This document shows positions 2,273 to 59,738 of a stretch of 64,000 bases of DNA, piece after piece. The DNA comes from Pristiophorus japonicus (lineage: Eukaryota). The notes beneath the pieces were generated by a model. That model worked only from the letters and a program-made list of their open reading frames with translations, did no database searches and was not told the origin of the DNA. The stretch's first letter is position 1, and the number at the start of each line of letters is the position of its first letter. Where the stretch lies: NCBI RefSeq assembly GCF_044704955.1, contig NC_091997.1, positions 85,808,001 to 85,872,000 on the forward strand. The letters are read 5' to 3'. The position numbers were made by a program, and so were the translations under genes.

Positions 2273-2307
2273 TGATGACGGCAAAACTGAAATCCAGGCA
2301 GTAAAAT
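2273..2307 (+). CDS. Gene A (IgSF receptor paralog) cytoplasmic mini-exon, DDGKTEIQAVK
   Basis: Polypyrimidine tract + cccAG acceptor, GTAAGT donor at 2308; 35 nt, phase 2 to phase 1, in frame with next exon; paralogous to 41326-41360. Confidence 0.8.
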
Positions 2308-2396: not shown

Positions 2397-2662
2397 GCAG
2401 TGACCGCACGGACCATATACCGCAGGTTGAAACCTCTTTAGCCATTGAACTCAAACCAGACGGCCAATCGCAGCCCAAAGAGGACAGTAAGGAGGATCCC
2501 GTTGCTCTGTCTAATGAGCAGACTTATTCTTTGATAGGTTGCCCGGGGACAGGGAGCCCAGGAGACACGGAGACAAGGTCTCGGCTGGAGGAAGATGATC
2601 CACAACCTGGCCCGTTAGAGATGGAAGAAAATCCTATTTATGCTAAAATAGAGGAAGCCTGA
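2397..2662 (+). CDS. Gene A terminal coding exon: acidic cytoplasmic tail with QTYSLI and NPIYAKI tyrosine motifs
   Basis: ttctAG acceptor after an 89-nt intron; open frame (C)SDRTDHIPQVETSLAIELKPDG...NEQTYSLIGCPG...EMEENPIYAKIEEA*; not in ORF track. Confidence 0.8.
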
Positions 2663-2994
2663 ATGTGATTGAGTAATGGGAGAAAGGCAACGGATAACTT
2701 GGTTAAACTCATTGTGGTACTAGATTTTAAAATATATATTTTACACTGGGTATTGAACACTTTCCCACTGCAGACCCCCAGGGTGGGGGAGAATTCGACA
2801 TTGTTGCACTGGATTTCTGGATGGATCATGGGTGCAAAAGAGGTCCAATTTAGGAGGCCAACCCACCATGCCCGAGTAGTGTCGGAAACATGTTTGATGC
2901 CATATTGGTTTGGGCCTGTAGAGGAGTCCCTGATGTAGGCGTTAGGCTCCTTTGAATATGCTAATAAGGGGCCTACCACTTATTCCAGGATCCA

Positions 2995-3161
2995 AACCGG
3001 CCATTATCACATTGCTGTTTGTGGGACCTTGCTGTGTGCAAATTAGCTGCCACTTTTCCTAAATTACAACAGTGACTAAACTTCAAAAAATACTTAATTC
3101 GCTGTAAAGTGCTTTGTGATCTCCAGAGGTCATGAAAGGCACTCGATAAATGCAAGTCTTT
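2995..3161 (+). mobile_element. Deu-domain SINE 3' portion (SacSINE1/AmnSINE-like) in gene A 3' UTR
   Basis: ATCACATTGCTGTTTGTGGGACCTTGCTGTGTGCAAATT...ATAAATGCAAGTCTTTC; similar to 5345-5520. Confidence 0.75.
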
Positions 3162-3685
3162 CAATTCATTCATTAATTTTGAGGGAAGGGAAACCACGCA
3201 GAATACAGGTGGACAACCGACGCTCGTTGAACACAAGTGCGTTTTCACAGATTGTAACATTGAAGCTGCTTGAAGCGCAGGATTGTGTGTGGAGAAATCT
3301 TCTCCCAATGTTTCACAAATGATATAAAGCCGCTGGTGGCAGCTCCTTGCCTTTCCCGGTTTGTTCTGAGTTTTTGTGGCGACCGACACAGAACATGGAG
3401 ACAGACTCAATGTGAGTTTCCACTCTCACCGACACCGGACGAGGGCGATGGGAACCCACGGTTGAAGAATATAACTGTAACACATTCGACGTGAAATTGG
3501 TCCTCGCCAGTTTCGACTTTGATGGAAATGAAATTCGGGCTCGGTGTGAAACGTGCGCTCGATTCGCGATGAGCTTCACACTGCTGGCGAAGAGTAACTT
3601 CATCCCCTTGGACTCTGCTTAGATAGAACAACGCATCGCTGGTGTGTAATACGCAAAATGGAACTTGTGTGATTGGAAGTCAATC

Positions 3686-18561: not shown

Positions 18562-18616
18562 ATGGCGCTTGGTGCTCTGTTTGTGGGTCTTTTCCTTCTG
18601 TTCCAACATGTTGTAG
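18562..18616 (+). CDS. Gene B exon 1: signal peptide MALGALFVGLFLLFQHVV(G)
   Basis: Good Kozak gaaATGG, hydrophobic 18 codons + 1 nt, GTAAGG donor, phase 1 as typical for IgSF leader exons. Confidence 0.8.
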
Positions 18617-20667
18617 GTAAGGATCCATACTTTCAACTAATCTTCAACATGTTTATCTGGAAATATCAGTTTCTATCTGTACCTGAACGCAGAAATATAA
18701 GGATTGAAGGATATTGATTGCCATCAGTGCTGCTTTCACGCGGATGTTTAATGTACTCATATGACAGTTGTTGTTGGGTCATTTTAACACGGTTTAATCA
18801 TGGGTGGTCAGTTTAAAATTGGCACTAAGAGAGTGAGGAGACAGATTAGGAGAACATTTTTTACACAGAGGTTTGTTTTGCCACAGGGAGTGGTTGACGC
18901 AGAGACATTTTCATCTTTTGAAGGAAAACTGGAAAACATTTGAAGCAGAGGAAGATTTGGGGCTGTGGGGCGAGCGAGGCAATGGATTTGCTCTGGCAAA
19001 GAGCCAGCACTGGCACGATGGGCCCAATTGCCTCCTTCTGTGCTGCAAACGTCTTTGGTTCAACTCCTGTCTTAAAACAGTGCAGGGATGAAATACAAGA
19101 ACAGTGCTGATCCTATCCCAATTTCCCTTACAACAGAATCATATCTCACTCTAGGAATGAAATAGTGGAAGATTTAGAAGAGTTAGAAGGATTTGCTGAT
19201 GGGCTTTAATGGAGAGAGGGGGTGGGAAGTCCGTGCAGAGCATAAATGCGGCATGGAGCAGTTGGGCCGAATGGCCTGTTTCTGTGCCGAACATTCCATG
19301 TAATTCTGTGTAAGATTTTATGCTCAGGCTCGATTATTGGGAACTCGAAAGTAACAATTATATTTGATGACTCAGCCGAGCCTCACACCATTAAAGGGTG
19401 GAGACCACACTAGGCGGGGCCCACGACACCACTCGGACCAGGGCTCGAAATCAGCACCACTGGCAAAATGGAGCAGCTCAGAGCTTTCTGTACATTACAG
19501 ACCGTCCATTCCGCGATTGTTCTGTAAGGAAATGGAAACCGACACTGTGTAAAGGGGGATTTGTAACCATACTCTGCAATTTGTTTCTAAACAGACTCTG
19601 TGTAATATGGGCGGTCTGCCGACAGATTCTGTTCCTCAAATGATAAGTGACGTCTGCCCCTAACCTCAGTCCAAACACGGCTAAGTTACAACCGAGTCTG
19701 ACTGGGAGATGTGGTTTGGTGTTTATTCGAGCTCTGGCGTAATAGTGATCTATAGTACAGACACACCTGGGTCAGTGGGGCCAAGTTTCAGTTGAGTTGC
19801 TCCTGTTTTTTTGGAGCAACTGGTTTAGAATGGAATATCTTAGAAATTTGAATTCTCGGCATTTAGTTTGTTCCAGTTCTAGTCAGTTAGAACAGTTTCA
19901 CTTTGGAACAGAATTTTTTTTTCAAAAGGGGGCGTGTCCGGCCATTACGCCTGTTTTTAAAGTTTAGGCAGTGAAAACTCACTCCAAACTAAAGTAGAAT
20001 GGAGTAATTGAAGATTTTTGTACGTTCGAAAAAACCTTGTCTACACTTTAGAAAATCAGGCGTAGGTTACAAATTCGGCGTAGGGAACGAGGGCGGGGGG
20101 GGGGGAGACGGGGGGAAGGGAAGTCATTAAATTCTACAATCAATCCTTCAGCCATGAACTCATTGAATGGCGGTGCAGGCTAGAAGGGCCGAATGGCCTA
20201 CTCCTGCACCTATTTTCTATGTTTCTATGTTAGTTATACTTATACAAATATTATACAAATAAATCCAACCTGAATAAAAATTTATAAGCAAAGAAAAGAT
20301 TAAATAATCCATGTTCCGACCTGTGCGAAACAGCAGCAACCTTCAGGCAGGCCTTTCATGTTGGAGACAGGCAGGGGTGGTGTCAGTGTCTCGACGGCAG
20401 CCCCACAGCAGCAACAAGCAGCCTTCGAGCTGAGCTGTGGTGCTTCAGGCAGGCCTACATTCCGTTAGTGGCTGGCCGGCAGCCGAGGAATCAACACGCA
20501 CGCAGCTTTCGAAGGGGGTTGAGGCCATTCGGCCACACGATAGGGGCGGCGTCAGTGGCTCGATGGCAGCCGAAGATACAGCAGCAGCTTTCGAGCTATG
20601 AGGGGACTGAGGCCATTTGGCCAGGGAGAGGCAGCCACATAGACAGTTTTATACTTAAATTTGCAGA

Positions 20668-21861
20668 ATGGGTGCTGCATTGTCAACACCACGTATTATG
20701 CAATGGTTTGCCATCAATTCACTGCATAGGAGAGAATTGATTAGAGCTCACCGCACCAGGAACATCGTAACCCGTAGGCTGATGGGCAGGAGACCTTACC
20801 CACGTCGACAATATCGAGCCAGGCGCTCGTACCTGGACATGAGCGAGGCTGATTGTGTGAAAAGGCTGCGTTCACTGAGATCTGTGATATGGTGAGAGCA
20901 GATTTGCAGCCCAAAAGCAGAATGCCAACTGCCCTGTCTGTTGCAGTGAAGGTAACAGCTGCACTTTCTTTCTATGCCTCGGGATCGTTTCAGGCTACAA
21001 CTGGAGATGTGTGTGCCATCTCTCAACGTGCAATACATGCCTGCATTTACCAGGTCACAGCTGCACTGTATGTGCGAAGGAATGACTTCATCAATTTCCC
21101 AATGACCGCACAAGCGATCCATGAGAGGGCTGTGGGCTTCTTCAGGATTGCTGGCTTCCCAGGGCTGCATTGATTGTACCCATATAGCCTTGCGAGCACC
21201 TGTGGAGGATTCTGAGCAGTACCGAAATAGGAAAGGTTTCCACTCTATCAATGTGCAGCTCGTGTGTGACGACAAGCAGCGCATCATGTCAGTCGATGCG
21301 AGATACCCTGGCAGCACCCACGATGCGTTCATCCTACGCGACAGCGTTATATCTGACATGTTTGAGCAGCAGCCAGAAGGGCAGAGCTGGCTACTGGGAG
21401 ACAAAGGGTACGGCCTGACCACCTGGCTCATGACGCCCCTACGCGTGACACGGACAGAAGCTGACCGTCAATACAACATGGCGCACATTGCGACACGCAT
21501 CATCATTGAGAGATCCATTGGCATATTGAAACAGCGTTTCCGATGCCTGGACCATTCTGGAGGACAGCTGCTATACTCTCCTCAGATTGTCGGTCACTTC
21601 ACTGTTGTGTGCTGCATGCTTCATAATTTAGCCATCATGAGGCAGCAGGAGCTGGTAGTGGAACCTGAAGACCTATGTGAGGGTCCAGTGCCTGATGATA
21701 ATATTACGGAAGAGCAGGATGTGGATGATGACGATGATCAGGAAAGCATGCAAGTGCCTGATGCTGGAGCACGAGGTCGGAGAAGGTCCGTCCATCGTGC
21801 CCCTTTAACGATTGCTCGAGCCTTGCGCCAGCAGCTCATCCGTGAACGCTTCAACTACTGA
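20668..21861 (+). pseudogene. Harbinger DDE transposase (HARBI1-like), frameshifted
   Basis: GCIDCTHI, NRKGFHSINVQLVCD, PGSTHDA, LLGDKGY, IERSIGILKQRFRCL; split over three overlapping ORFs. Confidence 0.9.
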
Positions 21862-35717: not shown

Positions 35718-36119
35718 GATCCACTTATCTCTTCTTCCGAGGACCAGGAGATGTCACCACTCTGCAATGCAACGTGCCCACCGGTGCTGGGAATAAAGTA
35801 ACCTTGTGCAGCTCCAGTGATCCCAGGTCAGAAATGGGTGAAATAAAATGTCAGCACCCAAAGAACGAGAAGCCATGTGATGAAAATATCGGTCCTCAAG
35901 GGAGAAAAGGACACAGTGAGCCAGAGTGTACAAAATGCAAATTACATGACGACCAAACGGAGTCTCTGACATTCGCTGTGAAGACGATTAACTCGATGGT
36001 GTTTACCTTCATGGCTCAGGATTCCACAGAAGGAGGGGCATTGGAGTGTCCGTCCTGGCTCACACTGTCACAGCCGGGATGTGAAAACCACGACTTGTTC
36101 TTTGTGATAACCCAGGATG
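35718..36119 (+). CDS. Gene B exon 2: atypical cysteine-rich extracellular domain (134 codons, 8 Cys), possibly divergent Ig fold
   Basis: Strong polypyrimidine tract + gcAG, GTAGGT donor, phase 1-1, open frame (G)STYLFFRGPGDVTTLQC...GCENHDLFFVITQD. Confidence 0.75.
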
Positions 36120-38997: not shown

Positions 38998-39477
38998 ATT
39001 CAGCTGATATATCTCCTATTGAAGAAAACTCTTTGTCGCTGACAGTGTCAGAGGGAGAGAATGTGACTTTACCCTGCCAGTTTCAGAATAGAAAACTACT
39101 CGCCTTCACTCTGTTTTGGTTCAGATCTGGAAATGTCAATAAGTGTCTGCACTCTGTTTCCATTGACGCTCAGGGGCCATATTCTAACCCACTCTGTTGT
39201 GTGGATAGAGAGTCGTCACAAAGAATCTCTACCCAAAGCTCATACAATCCTTTGGTTAGCCGCCAGTCTCACAACCTTACTATTCACTCAGCGGGCCTGG
39301 TGGACACTGGGAGGTATCTCTGTGCTGTACACAGTCAGGATTCAGGGAAACATGTCTGGAAGATTGCAGCAAACATCTCCCTTGTGACAGAGCCCAGTGC
39401 AGAAACTTCAGACACTCCCACCTCAACATCTGGAATATCCTCAGTGACCGGAAGCATTACTCCTACAAATATACAAA
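38998..39477 (+). CDS. Gene B exon 3: V-set immunoglobulin domain plus Ser/Thr-rich stalk
   Basis: LTVSEGENVTLPC, LFWFR, HNLTI, DTGRYLC canonical V-set motifs; tatAG acceptor, GTAAGT donor, phase 1-1; N-glycosylation sequons NVT, NLT, NIS. Confidence 0.93.
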
Positions 39478-39639: not shown

Positions 39640-39756
39640 GTCCTTACTCCAGTTGCAGTGACATGCGCATTTGTGTTTTGGTTCTGTACTTGGTTGTGCT
39701 AATTTGCATTGATGGAGCACTTTGCATAATCCGAAGGAAATGGCAATCTGCCAAAG
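39640..39756 (+). CDS. Gene B exon 4: transmembrane segment (S)PYSSCSDMRICVLVLYLVVLICIDGALCIIRRKWQSAK
   Basis: ctgcAG acceptor, GTAAGC donor; 21-residue hydrophobic stretch followed by RRK stop-transfer. Confidence 0.85.
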
Positions 39757-40985: not shown

Positions 40986-41325
40986 ACTGTAGGGCGCTAA
41001 TGTGTTCTTGACGGAGGAAGTTGAATGTAAATTATTTCCTATGGGTCCCTTCCAGTCCAGAGGGAAAAGGAGGGATGGAGTGAGGGAGAGAGAGGGAGAG
41101 AGTGGGAGAGACAGGCAGACATAGACATAGAGAGAGAGAGAAAAGAGGAGGGAGAACTAAAGGGTGAGAGGGAAAACGGGAGAGTGATGGGAGATGGTGA
41201 GGGTGAAAAGTGAAGAGTAGAGAGAGATGGATTCAAATCCAGGTGTCAAAAATAACAAATCCCATTTACATCTGTTCAATATTGTTTGAATCTAATGTTA
41301 CACGTTTAATTTTATGTATTCTTAG

Positions 41326-41357
41326 TGATGGAGGCAAAAGTGAAATCCAGGGAATAA
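41326..41357 (+). CDS. Gene B exon 5: short cytoplasmic tail (V)MEAKVKSRE*
   Basis: cttAG acceptor paralogous to 2273; entered in phase 1 it gives TAA at 41355-41357; downstream donor mutated GT to GG (41361). Confidence 0.55.
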
Positions 41358-42387
41358 AATGGAAGTAGTTGCAATCTTTCAGTATAATCTTCTCAGAAGC
41401 TCCTGGAACTTTATCTCATGTAACGTATAAGAATTCACCATTTTTGCTGTATAAATTTGCTGTAAGTTGACCAAACTTAAAAAGTGACCAAATTTAATGA
41501 CCCAACATGCTTTGGGAGGCCAAGAGTCTGGTTCCTGTGAGAATTTTATAAAATTTTTGAACCAGCAAGGGATTGCAGATAAGGGATTAACCAACCTTGG
41601 ACAGGAACAAACTGTTGAGCCATCATGAGGAAAACAGGAACATCTGCAGACAATGAATAGCCTTGAGGCCACCGATGTAAAAGATAAGATTTAATTCACT
41701 GACTGACCGTTGATCAGAAGAAATGAAGAAAACAACTACTACTATGATTAATATAATTTGGGACACGCACGCAGTGGGCAGGTTACCAAGTTTTGCGGTA
41801 TACAAAGTACTGCGAAAAGACACTCGCTGCTGCAGTCGACGGCAACCTGGTCAGTTGCTAGTTAAAGTCGTACATCTAGTCATCATCGAACCGACCACTC
41901 GTTGGTATTAGTATGAATGTAGTGCTTGCTTATCATTGCTTGATTTTAAATTACGGTAATAAACCTGTGTATGCTGAAGTATAATCAAGGATCTATTATA
42001 TATTATATGCAATAGTTTTGTGTGAACTTACATGTGATTTTTTGCTGATCTTAAGTAAAAAGAAGTTTTTCACAGATTCATTGGTTTTTGAATTGTTTTG
42101 TTTCACGGGTCCGAACTCTGTAAACCATCGGATGGGCCGAGGGGTTATTTCCACATGTCCTACAAACGAAGACAGATGGCTTTCATTATCCACTTGAAGT
42201 GAAACCCATCAGACGTGATCTCCTCTCCCAATATCTCGGCAGAGACCACACGGACCATGGGTGGCAGGTGTACAACCGACCCCCTCGAACACAAGTGTGT
42301 TTTCACAGATTGTAACATTGAAGCTGCTTGAAGCGCAGGATTGTGTGTGGAGAAATCTTCTCCCAATGTTCCGCAAATGGTATAAAA

Positions 42388-42847: not shown

Positions 42848-43369
42848 TAAACTGCTGTTTGTTCTGAGTTTTTGTGGCGACCGACATAGAACATGGAGAC
42901 AGACTCAATGTGAGTTTCCACTCTCACCGACACCGGACGGGAGCGATGGGAACCCACGGTTGAAGAATGTAGCGGCTACACATTCGGCGTGAAATTGGTC
43001 CTCGCCAGTTTCGACTTTGATGGAAATGAAATTCGGGCTCGGTGTGAAACGTGCGCTCGATTCGCGATGAGCTTCACACTGCTGGCGAAGAGCAACTTCA
43101 CCCCCTTGGACTCTGCTTAGATAGAACAACGCATCGCTGGTGTGTAATACGCAAAATGGAACTTGTGTGATTGGAAGTCATTCAATAAACACTGTTTAAA
43201 AATTATAACTAAATGACGAGCTGTGTCATCTGTCCAGCAGGAATTTTATGCCAAACTAATTGAATGAATGAACTGATCTCAGTGAGGACACTGCATTTAG
43301 ACTCAGTGCCCCTGGGTTAGAGAGGAGAAAAATCAGCCAGGGCTCCCAACACTGATTGGTGCCCAAGGA

Positions 43370-56265: not shown

Positions 56266-57913
56266 ATATCTGTTTAGTATTATCGTTCATGGACATAAAA
56301 GCCTGGGCTATCGTAATGGTCTTGCTCAGATCTAGGGATTCGGCAGACAGCAGTTTGCGAAGAATGACCTTGTGGCCGATTCCAAGCACGAAAATGTCCC
56401 GCAACACTTCCCTCAAAAATCTAGCAAATACGCACGGTCCTGCAAAGCGTCTTAGGTCAGCGACATAGCCCGCCACGTCCTGGCCCTCGGAGCGATGGTG
56501 TGTATAAAAGCGATACCTGGCCATCAAGATGCTCTCCTTCAGCTTGAGGTGTTCCCGAACCAGCGTGCACAGCTCCTCATATGTCTTCTCCATTGGTTTC
56601 GTCGGTGCTAGCAGATTTTTGATGAGGCCATATATCGTGGACCCACAAACGGTGAGGAGAATCGCCCTGTGCTTGATCGCGGTTTCTTCCTTTTCCAGCT
56701 CGTTGGCCACGAAGTACTGGTCACGGAGTTCAACAAAGGCTTCCCAATCATCACCCTCAACAAATCTCTCAAGAATACCAATGGCAACCATAACTGCGTG
56801 AAAGTTCGTGATCTGTTACTTGTCGCCAATTGTTACATTTAGAATAACTCCACAAGACTGTATATCTTAAGCTCAAACTGTTGTGACCTTGGTCTCTTTA
56901 TTATAACTCCAGAGTGAAGAGGCAGCATGGTAGACTGCCTTTTATACCTGCTTGCCCAGGGTGTGCAGGTGACCCTTGGGTCTCCCACAGGTGCGCCCCC
57001 TGGTGGCAAGTCTTACACATTGGTAATGTTTACATACATAACACGGACGATAAGTGGGAAATTCACAATTATGTAAGGGAAAGTTTGCTACAAATTGTCA
57101 GCCCCCAGCCGATCTCTAAACCATATTGTTAAACGTATTAAACAGTGTAACGTCACTGAAATTTGAAGGTTATGTTTCAATGTTGAACAATGCATGTATA
57201 ATCAGTAAGATAAAAGGACTTTCACGCGATAGTCACCAATCCCACACTCCGTGTGGGCAGCCATGCTCAAACAGGGGTCAGGGGTTAGCTCTGTGTCATT
57301 GTGTCTCCTTGAAGCAGAGCTCACTCTGACGGCAGGTTGGGGGGGAGGGGGTGGGAGGGGACAGAGTCAGTGAATTTACCCTCATAACCCTGGCATTTGC
57401 CTCATTGTCCAGCCCTTGGCTTCAGAACCAAGCTCTGAAACAATGGGTGCCATTTACAATATGAGCACCACACGCAAGGACTGGTGTGTAGCGAATCCAA
57501 GTGAACTCAACTCTAAAGTCTCCTACATACAAAGCGGCAGGAAGTGTGTGACGATTGCGAAATTTGAACTGATGATGGGTAGTGAAGCAATTTTAAAAAG
57601 GGTAGAAAGGGTGCAGTGAAAGATTCATGAGGATGTTGCCAGGACTGGAAAACTTTAGCTGTGAGGAAAGATTGGATAGGCTGGGGCTGTTTTCCTTGGA
57701 ACAGAGGAGGCTGAGGGGAGATTTAATTGAGGTGTATAAAATTATGAGGGGCCTAGTGAGGGTGACTAGGAAGGATCTATTGCCCTTAGTCGAGGAGTCA
57801 ATAACCAGAGGGCATAGATTTTTTAATTAATGTGGAAAGATAGAAAAAGAGCAACCATAGATTGCAAGGCTTGCTGGGACATTATATTTGGTCAACCTAA
57901 GAATTAGAGCTTA

Positions 57914-58423
57914 CTAGCAAAGTTATGTGATGAGACTGGACTCAAATGGGTCAAACTGTTACCTTTGGCAGTAATGGTAATGCGATCAGCAACAAATAGA
58001 ACGACAGGATTATCACCACATGAAATCGTCATGGGACGTCCCCAATGTTTGCCTTTTTCTGCACCGTTTACTGCTAAACAAATGGATGTCCACAAAATGG
58101 AAGAAAATATGCTAAACTATTGCATTGCTTTAACAAAATGTATTTCTAGCTTTCATTCCCAGGTAAAGGAAGCCCAAATTGATCCTGCTGAAGGAAGATG
58201 CCATAGCTTGGAGCCTGGCGAGTTCGTGTACGTGAAGGTGTTCAAGAGGAAAAATAGTCTTCACGCAAGGTTTGAAGGTCCATTCCAGATCCTGTTGACC
58301 ACCAATACTGCCGTGAAGATAAAGAAGAGACCAACATGGATCCACGCCTCACACTGCAAAAGAGCTCCAGGACATGAGGAAAAGGAATCACTAATCCCAT
58401 CAGTAAAGGGAAATGGACATTAG
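57914..58423 (+). pseudogene. pol: ERV integrase C-terminal fragment
   Basis: WVKLLPLAV, TGLSPHEIVMGRP, RFEGPFQILLTTNTAVK, WIHASHCK. Confidence 0.9.
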
Positions 58424-59738
58424 GACTATGTTTCCTTGTGACACTTATAATACCTGTAATGCCCGAATTGCATGTAAACACCTTCTTGTATATGTCCCAC
58501 AAATACGCTACGAAAAACAACAAAGAAGGGGGTTGTTGGATATGTAACCAAACCCCTCTCCACTCTAAGGGAGGGATTCCTCTTAGAACTATCCCACTTA
58601 ATCTGTCAGAAGTAATAGAATGGTATATCTACCAGAACGGCACACGCCAATTCCCTAGGATGATAAGAGCTGCGACGGTGGTAGTATACCCACCATCGGG
58701 CGACGGGAAGATGATGGAATCCTCTAGTTTATCATTTTACCCCATATCTGCAGAGCCCTGGGAAAAGGGGGGATATCGTCTGAATACCTTTGAAGGGTGG
58801 TACCAACCAAGGTATGACCACTCCCAACAACCTTCCTTCCTCACTCTTACCAGGACCACAGGTATGGGAAGGCCGCCGGGGACAATATGTTTAGTAAGGA
58901 ACTTGGCCGGGGGAATATTCGTAGGCGTGAGTCAGTGTGAATATAATTTTACAGTGGCGGGTACTCCTGTCGCGTTTCCCCTTTATACGTCCTCTCAGTT
59001 TTATGGTTGTACATTGAATGTCCCATACGCCAACCAGATAGGTACTTTCAACTATTCCCTGGTATCCGCAGGGTTTGATGTGGATAAAACCACCTCGTAC
59101 AATGGAACATAATTTGTTTGTGGCCACTTATCCTCTCCAGCAAATCACCCGCATTATCGATCCAGTCGAGCCATTACAGAAACACAACCATTCTCTTCTA
59201 TCCTTGTTCCCCTCTAGGAGTAGCATTTGCCATAAGAGAAATAAGAAAAGTGGCTAGAATATTAGAAGAAGTAGCAAACGACACTGCAGAAGCTGTAAGC
59301 GGATTAAACGATGAGATGGTGGCTATAAGAACAGTAGCTTTGCAAAATAGAATGGCTCTAGACTATCTGCTAGCAGAAAAGGGTGGAACATGTGCACTAA
59401 TGGGGTCTGAGTGTTGCACATACATTCCTGACAATTCTGAGGAAATAGGTAACTTAGTGGACCACATCCGGAAGGAAGTTGAAAAGTTAAAGAAACCAGG
59501 TTCCTGGGACATGTTTGATTGGGCAGGCGGATGGTTCGGGCCTATAGGTCAAACCATAGTACAAGGGCTGATCATATTCCTGGTCATTATCTTTGCTCTA
59601 TATTTGGTATTTGTCCTGATAAAATGCTGCTGTGCACGACTAGGGGCTACAGCCGTGATGGTAGCCACAACCCCAGAAGCCTCAGAGAAGGCAGAAACCA
59701 TGGAGATGGAGAGACTCTGTAAAATTCAGTTGGACTAA
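58411..59738 (+). pseudogene. env: ERV envelope, disrupted (stop 59110-59112, apparent internal deletion) with open TM subunit region
   Basis: Signal-like WTLGLCFLVTLII, CWIC (CXXC), LQNRMALDYLLAEKGGTC immunosuppressive domain, CX6CC, hydrophobic anchor. Confidence 0.9.

Follow-up and report, generated by a model that had tools for sequence, protein, structure and literature searches.

How does a receptor gene whose extracellular exons nearly match those of a neighbour come to end in a tail that lacks the neighbour's tyrosines? The question is raised by two genes, A and B, in a 64,000-nucleotide window of the sawshark Pristiophorus japonicus (assembly GCF_044704955.1, here G000; contig NC_091997.1, here C21, positions 85808001-85872000, forward strand). 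Gene B is the last of ten tandem genes; gene A reaches into the window with the end of its tail, its ectodomain and transmembrane (TM) exons lying upstream. A first-pass annotation, made from the letters of the window, had described gene B as a long-tailed receptor dismantled stepwise into a short-tailed one, in the manner of activating KIR and Ly49. The direction of that change was right; its timing, tyrosine count and polyadenylation inference were wrong. From comparisons across sharks we read gene B, with moderate confidence, as an ancient, adaptor-coupled activating partner in an unnamed family of paired two-domain immunoglobulin (Ig) receptors.

Gene B and its neighbours

Gene B is predicted to encode a functional type I receptor in which a leader is followed by a Cys-rich domain, a V-set Ig domain, a stalk, a TM segment and a short tail. 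Exons 2 and 3, which the first-pass annotation had called open, and the TM exon are all open frames (Table 1), and the spliced gene equals a database protein of 361 amino acids, P0005, labelled an uncharacterised sawshark protein. The TM exon encodes a juxtamembrane Cys, an Arg at the N-terminal edge, a Tyr and an Asp near the C-terminal edge. It splices in phase 1 to position 41326, where a remnant exon supplies the last residues of a Tyr-free, ten-residue tail and the stop codon TAA (41355-41357). Ten TM exons were found in the array, nine of a neutral type like that of gene A and one, in gene B alone, of the charged type; eight complete tail ends were found. Gene B appears to be the short-tailed counterpart to nine neighbouring genes whose TM segments are of the long form.

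Of the two extracellular domains, domain 2 is a V-set domain, whereas the Cys-rich domain 1 matched no Pfam family at cut-off. Two structure models were obtained, with predicted local distance difference test (pLDDT) scores of 44 and 81. Domain 1 is β-rich in the model, and domains 1 and 2 together align to two-V-domain proteins; matches of the second model were to generic V-set and two-V proteins only, the first domain by itself being barely tested.

Origin of the short tail

The first-pass annotation had attributed the stop at 41355 to a TM exon that ends in phase 1 where the long-tail frame needs phase 2. The stop is real; a phase change is ruled out, as the TM exon of gene A also ends in phase 1, and the mismatch reflects exon loss. 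In gene A, the TM exon is followed, upstream of the window at C21:85803372-85803802, by three exons (22, 35 and 187 nt) that restore phase 2. Together with two exons inside the window they form an open tail with five Tyr, a structure matched by database model P0006; a processed copy on another contig (C11) joins the last three tail exons in the predicted phases. A tblastn search with the gene A tail found no counterpart of the three exons in the gene B intron, so the intervening exons that the first pass had allowed for exist in gene A and are missing from gene B. Because of this loss, the next exon, of 35 nt, is read in another frame and yields the ten-residue tail. The stop that ends it is already present in the shifted frame of gene A.

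Further differences follow downstream. As first reported, the splice donor of the 35-nt exon reads GG in gene B against GTAAGT (2308-2313) in gene A, and the acceptor of the last exon reads TCG (42236-42238) against TAG (2394-2396); a CAG at 42240-42242 persists beside the mutated acceptor. Only 6 nt (42259-42264) stand opposite positions 2417-3205 of gene A, a deletion of ~785 bp with CAGGT motifs at 2423 and 3206 in gene A and 42265 in gene B. The gap of ~790 bp noted earlier is therefore confirmed; the two tyrosines said to go with it belong to a tail that has five. Around these remnants, genes A and B are 78-80% identical. Over the stop lies an AATAAA hexamer, where the C11 copy reads GGAGTAGAA; since that copy carries it, the G at this site is ancestral, and AATAAA requires a single G>A substitution, which is synonymous in the present reading frame. 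Persistence of tail remnants and the charged TM segment support the derivation of the short-tailed from a long-tailed form.

Short forms in other sharks

Relative searches, cluster look-ups and an alignment search recovered long and short forms from other sharks. Short forms are present in eight species (Pristiophorus, Heptranchias, Heterodontus, Carcharodon, Mustelus, Scyliorhinus torazame, Hemiscyllium and Stegostoma), which we take to represent six shark orders. In five of the eight, a shifted-frame tail ends at the matching place (P0005, P0031, P0020, P0026, P0044); that of Heptranchias has a single difference from gene B in its ten residues. Translated across the deletion, the last-exon remnant of gene B aligns without gaps to the tail of a Heptranchias isoform (17/24 residues, 0/2000 shuffles) and more weakly to the Carcharodon tail (8/22, 3/2000 shuffles). 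These alignments indicate that gene B and Heptranchias share the deletion junction, and that Carcharodon probably shares it too. The Heptranchias short-form model (P0008, P0030-P0032) carries a duplicated two-domain unit, giving four domains.

The part of a preprint available to us (10.64898/2026.02.13.705779) places the Hexanchiformes split at about 278-288 million years ago (highest posterior density (HPD) interval 233-344) and other sharks and rays at 256 million years ago (HPD 212-312). Given these dates and the spread of species, the short form is probably more than 200 million years old. Its signature was absent from 76 weaker profile hits (P0068-P0143), of which 52 have a TM segment and 7 of these a tail of 30 residues or fewer; because each hit stands for a 50% cluster, this falls short of showing absence outside sharks. 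Likewise, no named hit bore a ray or chimaera label, which does not demonstrate absence there.

Looking for the lesions in relatives, as the first pass had proposed, separates them by age. The deletion junction and shifted-frame tail are shared with Heptranchias, in which models P0030 and P0032 still use both the donor and the acceptor site. The five differences on which the stepwise account was built do exist; they differ in age and do not form one recent event. The old changes are the three-exon loss, the move of the 35-nt exon into another frame, the deletion and the remodelling of the TM segment. Donor and acceptor changes are probably later because Heptranchias models still splice there, and the AATAAA hexamer and a long terminal repeat (LTR)-like insertion are probably later as well.

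Distinct histories of ectodomain and transmembrane segment

Phylogenetic trees were built from one long and one short form per species in the eight species; the TM trees are unrooted and rest on 40 columns, neither alternative isoforms nor most near-identical paralogues were included, and the four-domain Heptranchias protein entered by its membrane-proximal repeat. In the ectodomain tree each short form groups with the long form of its own species (8/8), which needs eight changes of form, and a single short-form clade is rejected (approximately unbiased test, p-AU 1e-5). In the TM tree all eight short forms make one clade with support of 99, and one change suffices. A 20-row tree with seven short forms gave the same result (bootstrap 100/99). 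Pairwise identities agree: against the long form of its own species, a short form is 94-99% identical in the ectodomain and 28-68% in the TM segment; against the best short form of another species, the values are 65-74% and 55-87%. The ectodomain similarity of genes A and B is thus best explained by repeated homogenisation, not recent duplication. What appears to be a second conversion tract lies beyond the diverged tail region, at the old end of the 3′ untranslated region (UTR; Table 1).

These patterns show the following course. In a common ancestor of the sampled sharks, one copy lost three tail exons, bringing the 35-nt exon into a frame that already held a stop. The same copy lost most of its last exon, with a junction traceable to at least the Heptranchias split, and gained a distinct TM segment with Arg and Asp/Asn. 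Afterwards the ectodomain was re-homogenised with the long forms in every sampled lineage as the TM segment stayed orthologous. The donor, acceptor, AATAAA and LTR changes sit in sequence already turned into 3′ UTR, and later drift would therefore account for them.

Transcript evidence and the 3′ end

A single run, X1, whose kind is not on record, bears on transcription. In it, exons 2 and 3 are connected by a GT..AG joint, and depth is zero in a unique intron bin. One 844-nt contig matches the window at 100% identity from 41324 to 41989, the match beginning sharply at the acceptor; its other 178 nt are unplaced. Bin depths fit zero cover just upstream of the acceptor and just past 41989. These observations hint that gene B is expressed.

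The contig crosses the dead donor and the AATAAA hexamer over the stop. The first-pass annotation was correct that this hexamer exists; as a sole polyadenylation signal it is ruled out, because the contig reads through it. The contig ends 26 nt after a second AATAAA, at 41958, inside a 746-bp LTR-like repeat in the old last intron. This repeat, which the first pass had missed, has 45 matches in the genome, itself included. Its hexamer may supply the polyadenylation site, although contigs cannot prove an RNA end.

Proposed signalling and its alternatives

Short-form TM segments carry Arg at the N-terminal edge in seven of the eight species and Tyr in all eight; near the C-terminal edge, five have Asp, one Asn and two His. 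Long forms have neutral TM segments and 5-7 tail Tyr, with NPxY in 12/12 and a strict inhibitory motif of the immunoreceptor tyrosine-based type (ITIM) in 7/12. In the text available of PMC2413239, a TM Arg on the N-terminal side in an NxxR context marks FcR-gamma-coupled receptors, and classical activating Fc receptors are marked by an Asp/Asn motif on the C-terminal side. The genome contains a zeta/gamma-family TM exon on C11 (C11:77265267). We propose that the charged TM segment would recruit an FcR-gamma/CD3-zeta-type adaptor bearing an immunoreceptor tyrosine-based activation motif (ITAM), and that the short form would activate on a ligand, perhaps a pathogen mimic, that the long Tyr-tailed forms read as dampening. 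A complex prediction for the gene B TM segment with two copies of the zeta/gamma-type TM exon scored 0.06 and weighs neither way.

Several observations speak against this proposal or the history behind it. Three of the eight short forms have no shifted-frame tail among the proteins fetched, and the tails of other species are database gene models whose RNA support is not visible. The Hemiscyllium tail does not match the deletion junction (1406/2000 shuffles), and the Heterodontus score derives from the undeleted part. Carcharodon's short form has no Arg, and three species have no Asp. By the motifs given in the available text of PMC2413239, strict NxxR occurs in 0/8 short forms (S/T-x-x-R in 7/8) and the classical Fc receptor motif (M/L)Fxx(D/N)TxL in 0/8. 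Gene A has no strict ITIM, which leaves an inhibitory long form unproven. The joint 39756>41326 is not among the 15 of 85 X1 joints shown.

An ancient, functional partner that does not itself signal is somewhat unlikely and the best-surviving alternative. It would act as a decoy, a dominant-negative chain or a subunit tuning long-form signalling, paired with the long form or another chain through the juxtamembrane Cys and the polar TM face. The same conservation and tree evidence applies to it; the juxtamembrane Cys and the TM Tyr and Cys are kept in 8/8 short forms, a stricter conservation than that of Arg (7/8) or Asp (5/8), and neither published adaptor motif is matched. However, a pure decoy needs no conserved charged TM residues, and Arg is placed at the N-terminal TM edge like that of FcR-gamma-coupled receptors (PMC2413239, text available).

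That gene B is an early or transcribed pseudogene, an option raised by the first pass, is improbable. Splice-site decay and the LTR-like insertion in the tail region would suit it, and the suggested comparison of nonsynonymous with synonymous change (dN/dS), run against paralogues, gave too few changes to inform (3 synonymous/6 nonsynonymous and 4/9). Against it stand the open frame, a TM segment and tail conserved across six orders, and the contig evidence of a transcript; the gene B TM segment, although not part of the homogenised tract, has 71% identity with the short form of another species. A recent, lineage-specific stepwise conversion from gene A on the KIR/Ly49 pattern would fit ectodomain exons 97-98% identical to gene A and donor and acceptor changes that may be lineage-specific, but is very improbable, as the TM segments of eight species form one clade, the TM exon and flank are only 70-76% identical to gene A, and the junction and tail shared with Heptranchias already contradict it.

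Features and surroundings of the locus

Table 1. Positions, in window coordinates, of the features of genes A and B
Feature	Position	Strand	Basis or remark
Gene B exon 1, signal peptide	18562..18619	+	tblastn with P0005 N-terminus; sequence and donor
Gene B exon 2, Cys-rich, probably divergent Ig-like domain	35718..36119	+	97.8% identity with gene A
Gene B exon 3, V-set Ig domain and Ser/Thr stalk	38998..39477	+	V core 96.7% identical to gene A
Gene B TM exon, short type	39640..39756	+	About 72% identical to gene A TM exon
Old 35-nt tail exon, shifted frame, now start of terminal exon	41326..41357	+	Acceptor AG 41324-41325
Proximal AATAAA	41353..41358	+	Overlaps stop; read through by the sole contig seen
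Dead splice donor, GG for GT	41361..41362	+	Sequence
Dispersed LTR-like repeat, TG...CA ends, 746 bp, in old last intron, now 3′ UTR	41419..42164	+	
AATAAA inside repeat, candidate working poly(A) signal	41958..41963	+	Contig end 41989; one run, contigs only
Old last-exon remnant: TCG acceptor, CAG 42240-42242, deletion junction near 42259-42269	42236..42312	+	
Old 3′ UTR end, distal AATAAA at 43184	42857..43305	+	97% identity with gene A 3359-3807
Gene A fourth tail exon, 35 nt, phase 2 to 1	2273..2307	+	Junctions joined in C11 processed copy
Gene A last coding exon	2397..2662	+	Two of five tail Tyr, one NPxY among them

Elsewhere in the array, two-gene units with near-identical proteins recur four times at about 54-67 kb spacing (C21:85.58-85.81 Mb), which may reflect recent duplication or an assembly artefact. 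The first array gene (L002, C21:85551463) has, in this assembly, a TGA directly after its TM segment, which is neutral, and appears to represent a second, independent path to a tailless form. In another (L003, C21:85748496), the TM exon and first three tail exons were found and the last two were not; the terminus of its model, P0007, is unrelated sequence. Two processed, truncated copies lie on other contigs, one with tail exons joined (L023, C11:30992973) and one in which exon 2 runs directly into the beginning of exon 3 (L056, C22:22063350).

The nearest gene downstream of gene B is PSMA4. Its exons lie on the minus strand ~45 kb past gene B and are followed by a Maestro-HEAT (MROH-like) exon (L072 and L079, C21:85.89-85.97 Mb); both are useful as synteny markers. 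The 200 kb of flanking sequence yielded no additional member of the family; of 239 candidate open reading frames (ORFs) there, 150 were scanned. Mobile elements in the window include retrovirus-like pieces at 57908-59109, with a match to an integrase C-terminal domain (Pfam MLVIN_C) followed by an ORF that has no Pfam match and may be env-like. In gene B intron 1 lies a DDE transposase ORF (21106-21858, Pfam DDE_Tnp_4), in a stretch 95-97% identical in paralogues.

Relation to known receptor families

A profile search recovered 82 representatives. Nine of ten looked up were named, from whale shark, sturgeon, two teleosts, lungfish, turtle, lizard, kiwi and echidna, all of them uncharacterised or hypothetical proteins without a functional name. 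Searches of PDB and Pfam gave no specific family, with PDB and fold matches to generic V-set domains only, and the ESM Atlas held no match at 0.9 or more. No published description of the family was found in a search that most subscription journals lay outside. It is possible, and we put it forward tentatively, that this is an undescribed receptor family of jawed vertebrates in which sharks alone kept one activating partner for more than 200 million years by continuous ectodomain conversion. If so, a single TM helix may combine an N-terminal Arg and a C-terminal Asp as two ways of docking an adaptor, and the tail would stem from an old exon read anew in a different frame. It would be a counter-example to short-lived activating partners and hint at a long-standing pathogen or self ligand in sharks. 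Most knowledge of paired receptors and of their partial homogenisation comes from mammals and amphibians; here, a datable short-tailed lineage across six shark orders has a clean border between converted and protected exons, and the pair would allow adaptor coupling and ligand-driven homogenisation to be tested directly in cartilaginous fish.

Two extracellular domains, rather than a single V domain together with characteristic CDR3 and tail motifs, separate the family from CD28 and its relatives, including CD28X and CD28HL, as the available text of PMC11599192 presents them. The MDIRs of skate and zebrafish are likewise multigene activating and inhibitory Ig receptors of cartilaginous fish; in the text available (PMC3031540) they resemble CD300, TREM and pIgR, whereas the shark family resembles V-set domains only generically and lies beside PSMA4, a distinction drawn by description only. 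The N-terminal-edge Arg, the very short tail and neighbours with neutral TM segments and Tyr tails recall the FcR-gamma-coupled NxxR receptors, among them LILRA2, PIR-A, NKp46, GPVI, OSCAR, Fc-alpha-R and Xenopus XFL TM1 (PMC2413239, text available). The shark form differs from these by S/T-x-x-R, a second polar residue (Asp, Asn or His) near the C-terminal edge and a tail on its own exon. With the classical activating Fc receptors of the same source it shares Asp/Asn in the C-terminal TM half (6/8 short forms); the flanking motif residues are absent and the ectodomain is different.

Activating KIR and Ly49 also follow the pattern of a charged TM segment in a short-tailed form that arose from a long-tailed one. 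The shark form shows no family-level sequence match to these and spans six shark orders against their recent, recurrent origin, with a single TM clade and a shared junction. In the available text of PMC2213150, activating KIR and Ly49 are at most ~18 and ~31 million years old and called short lived. Several features of paired receptors are seen here: ectodomains 94-99% identical in amino acids within species, clustering in a ten-gene tandem array, and one member with a charged TM segment (Arg 7/8, Asp/Asn 6/8) and a short Tyr-free tail. Among the closest parallels are the merohomogenised pairs, which in the text available of PMC3210942 include KLRC/NKG2, KLRB, KLRI, Ly49 and PIR-A/B. The shark pair stands apart from them by an unrelated ectodomain, its occurrence in cartilaginous fish, a far older split, a putative ligand and signalling that is predicted only; it resembles them in that the genes are clustered and ligand-binding exons appear homogenised within species as signalling parts stay orthologous, so that the ectodomain groups by species and the signalling part by type.
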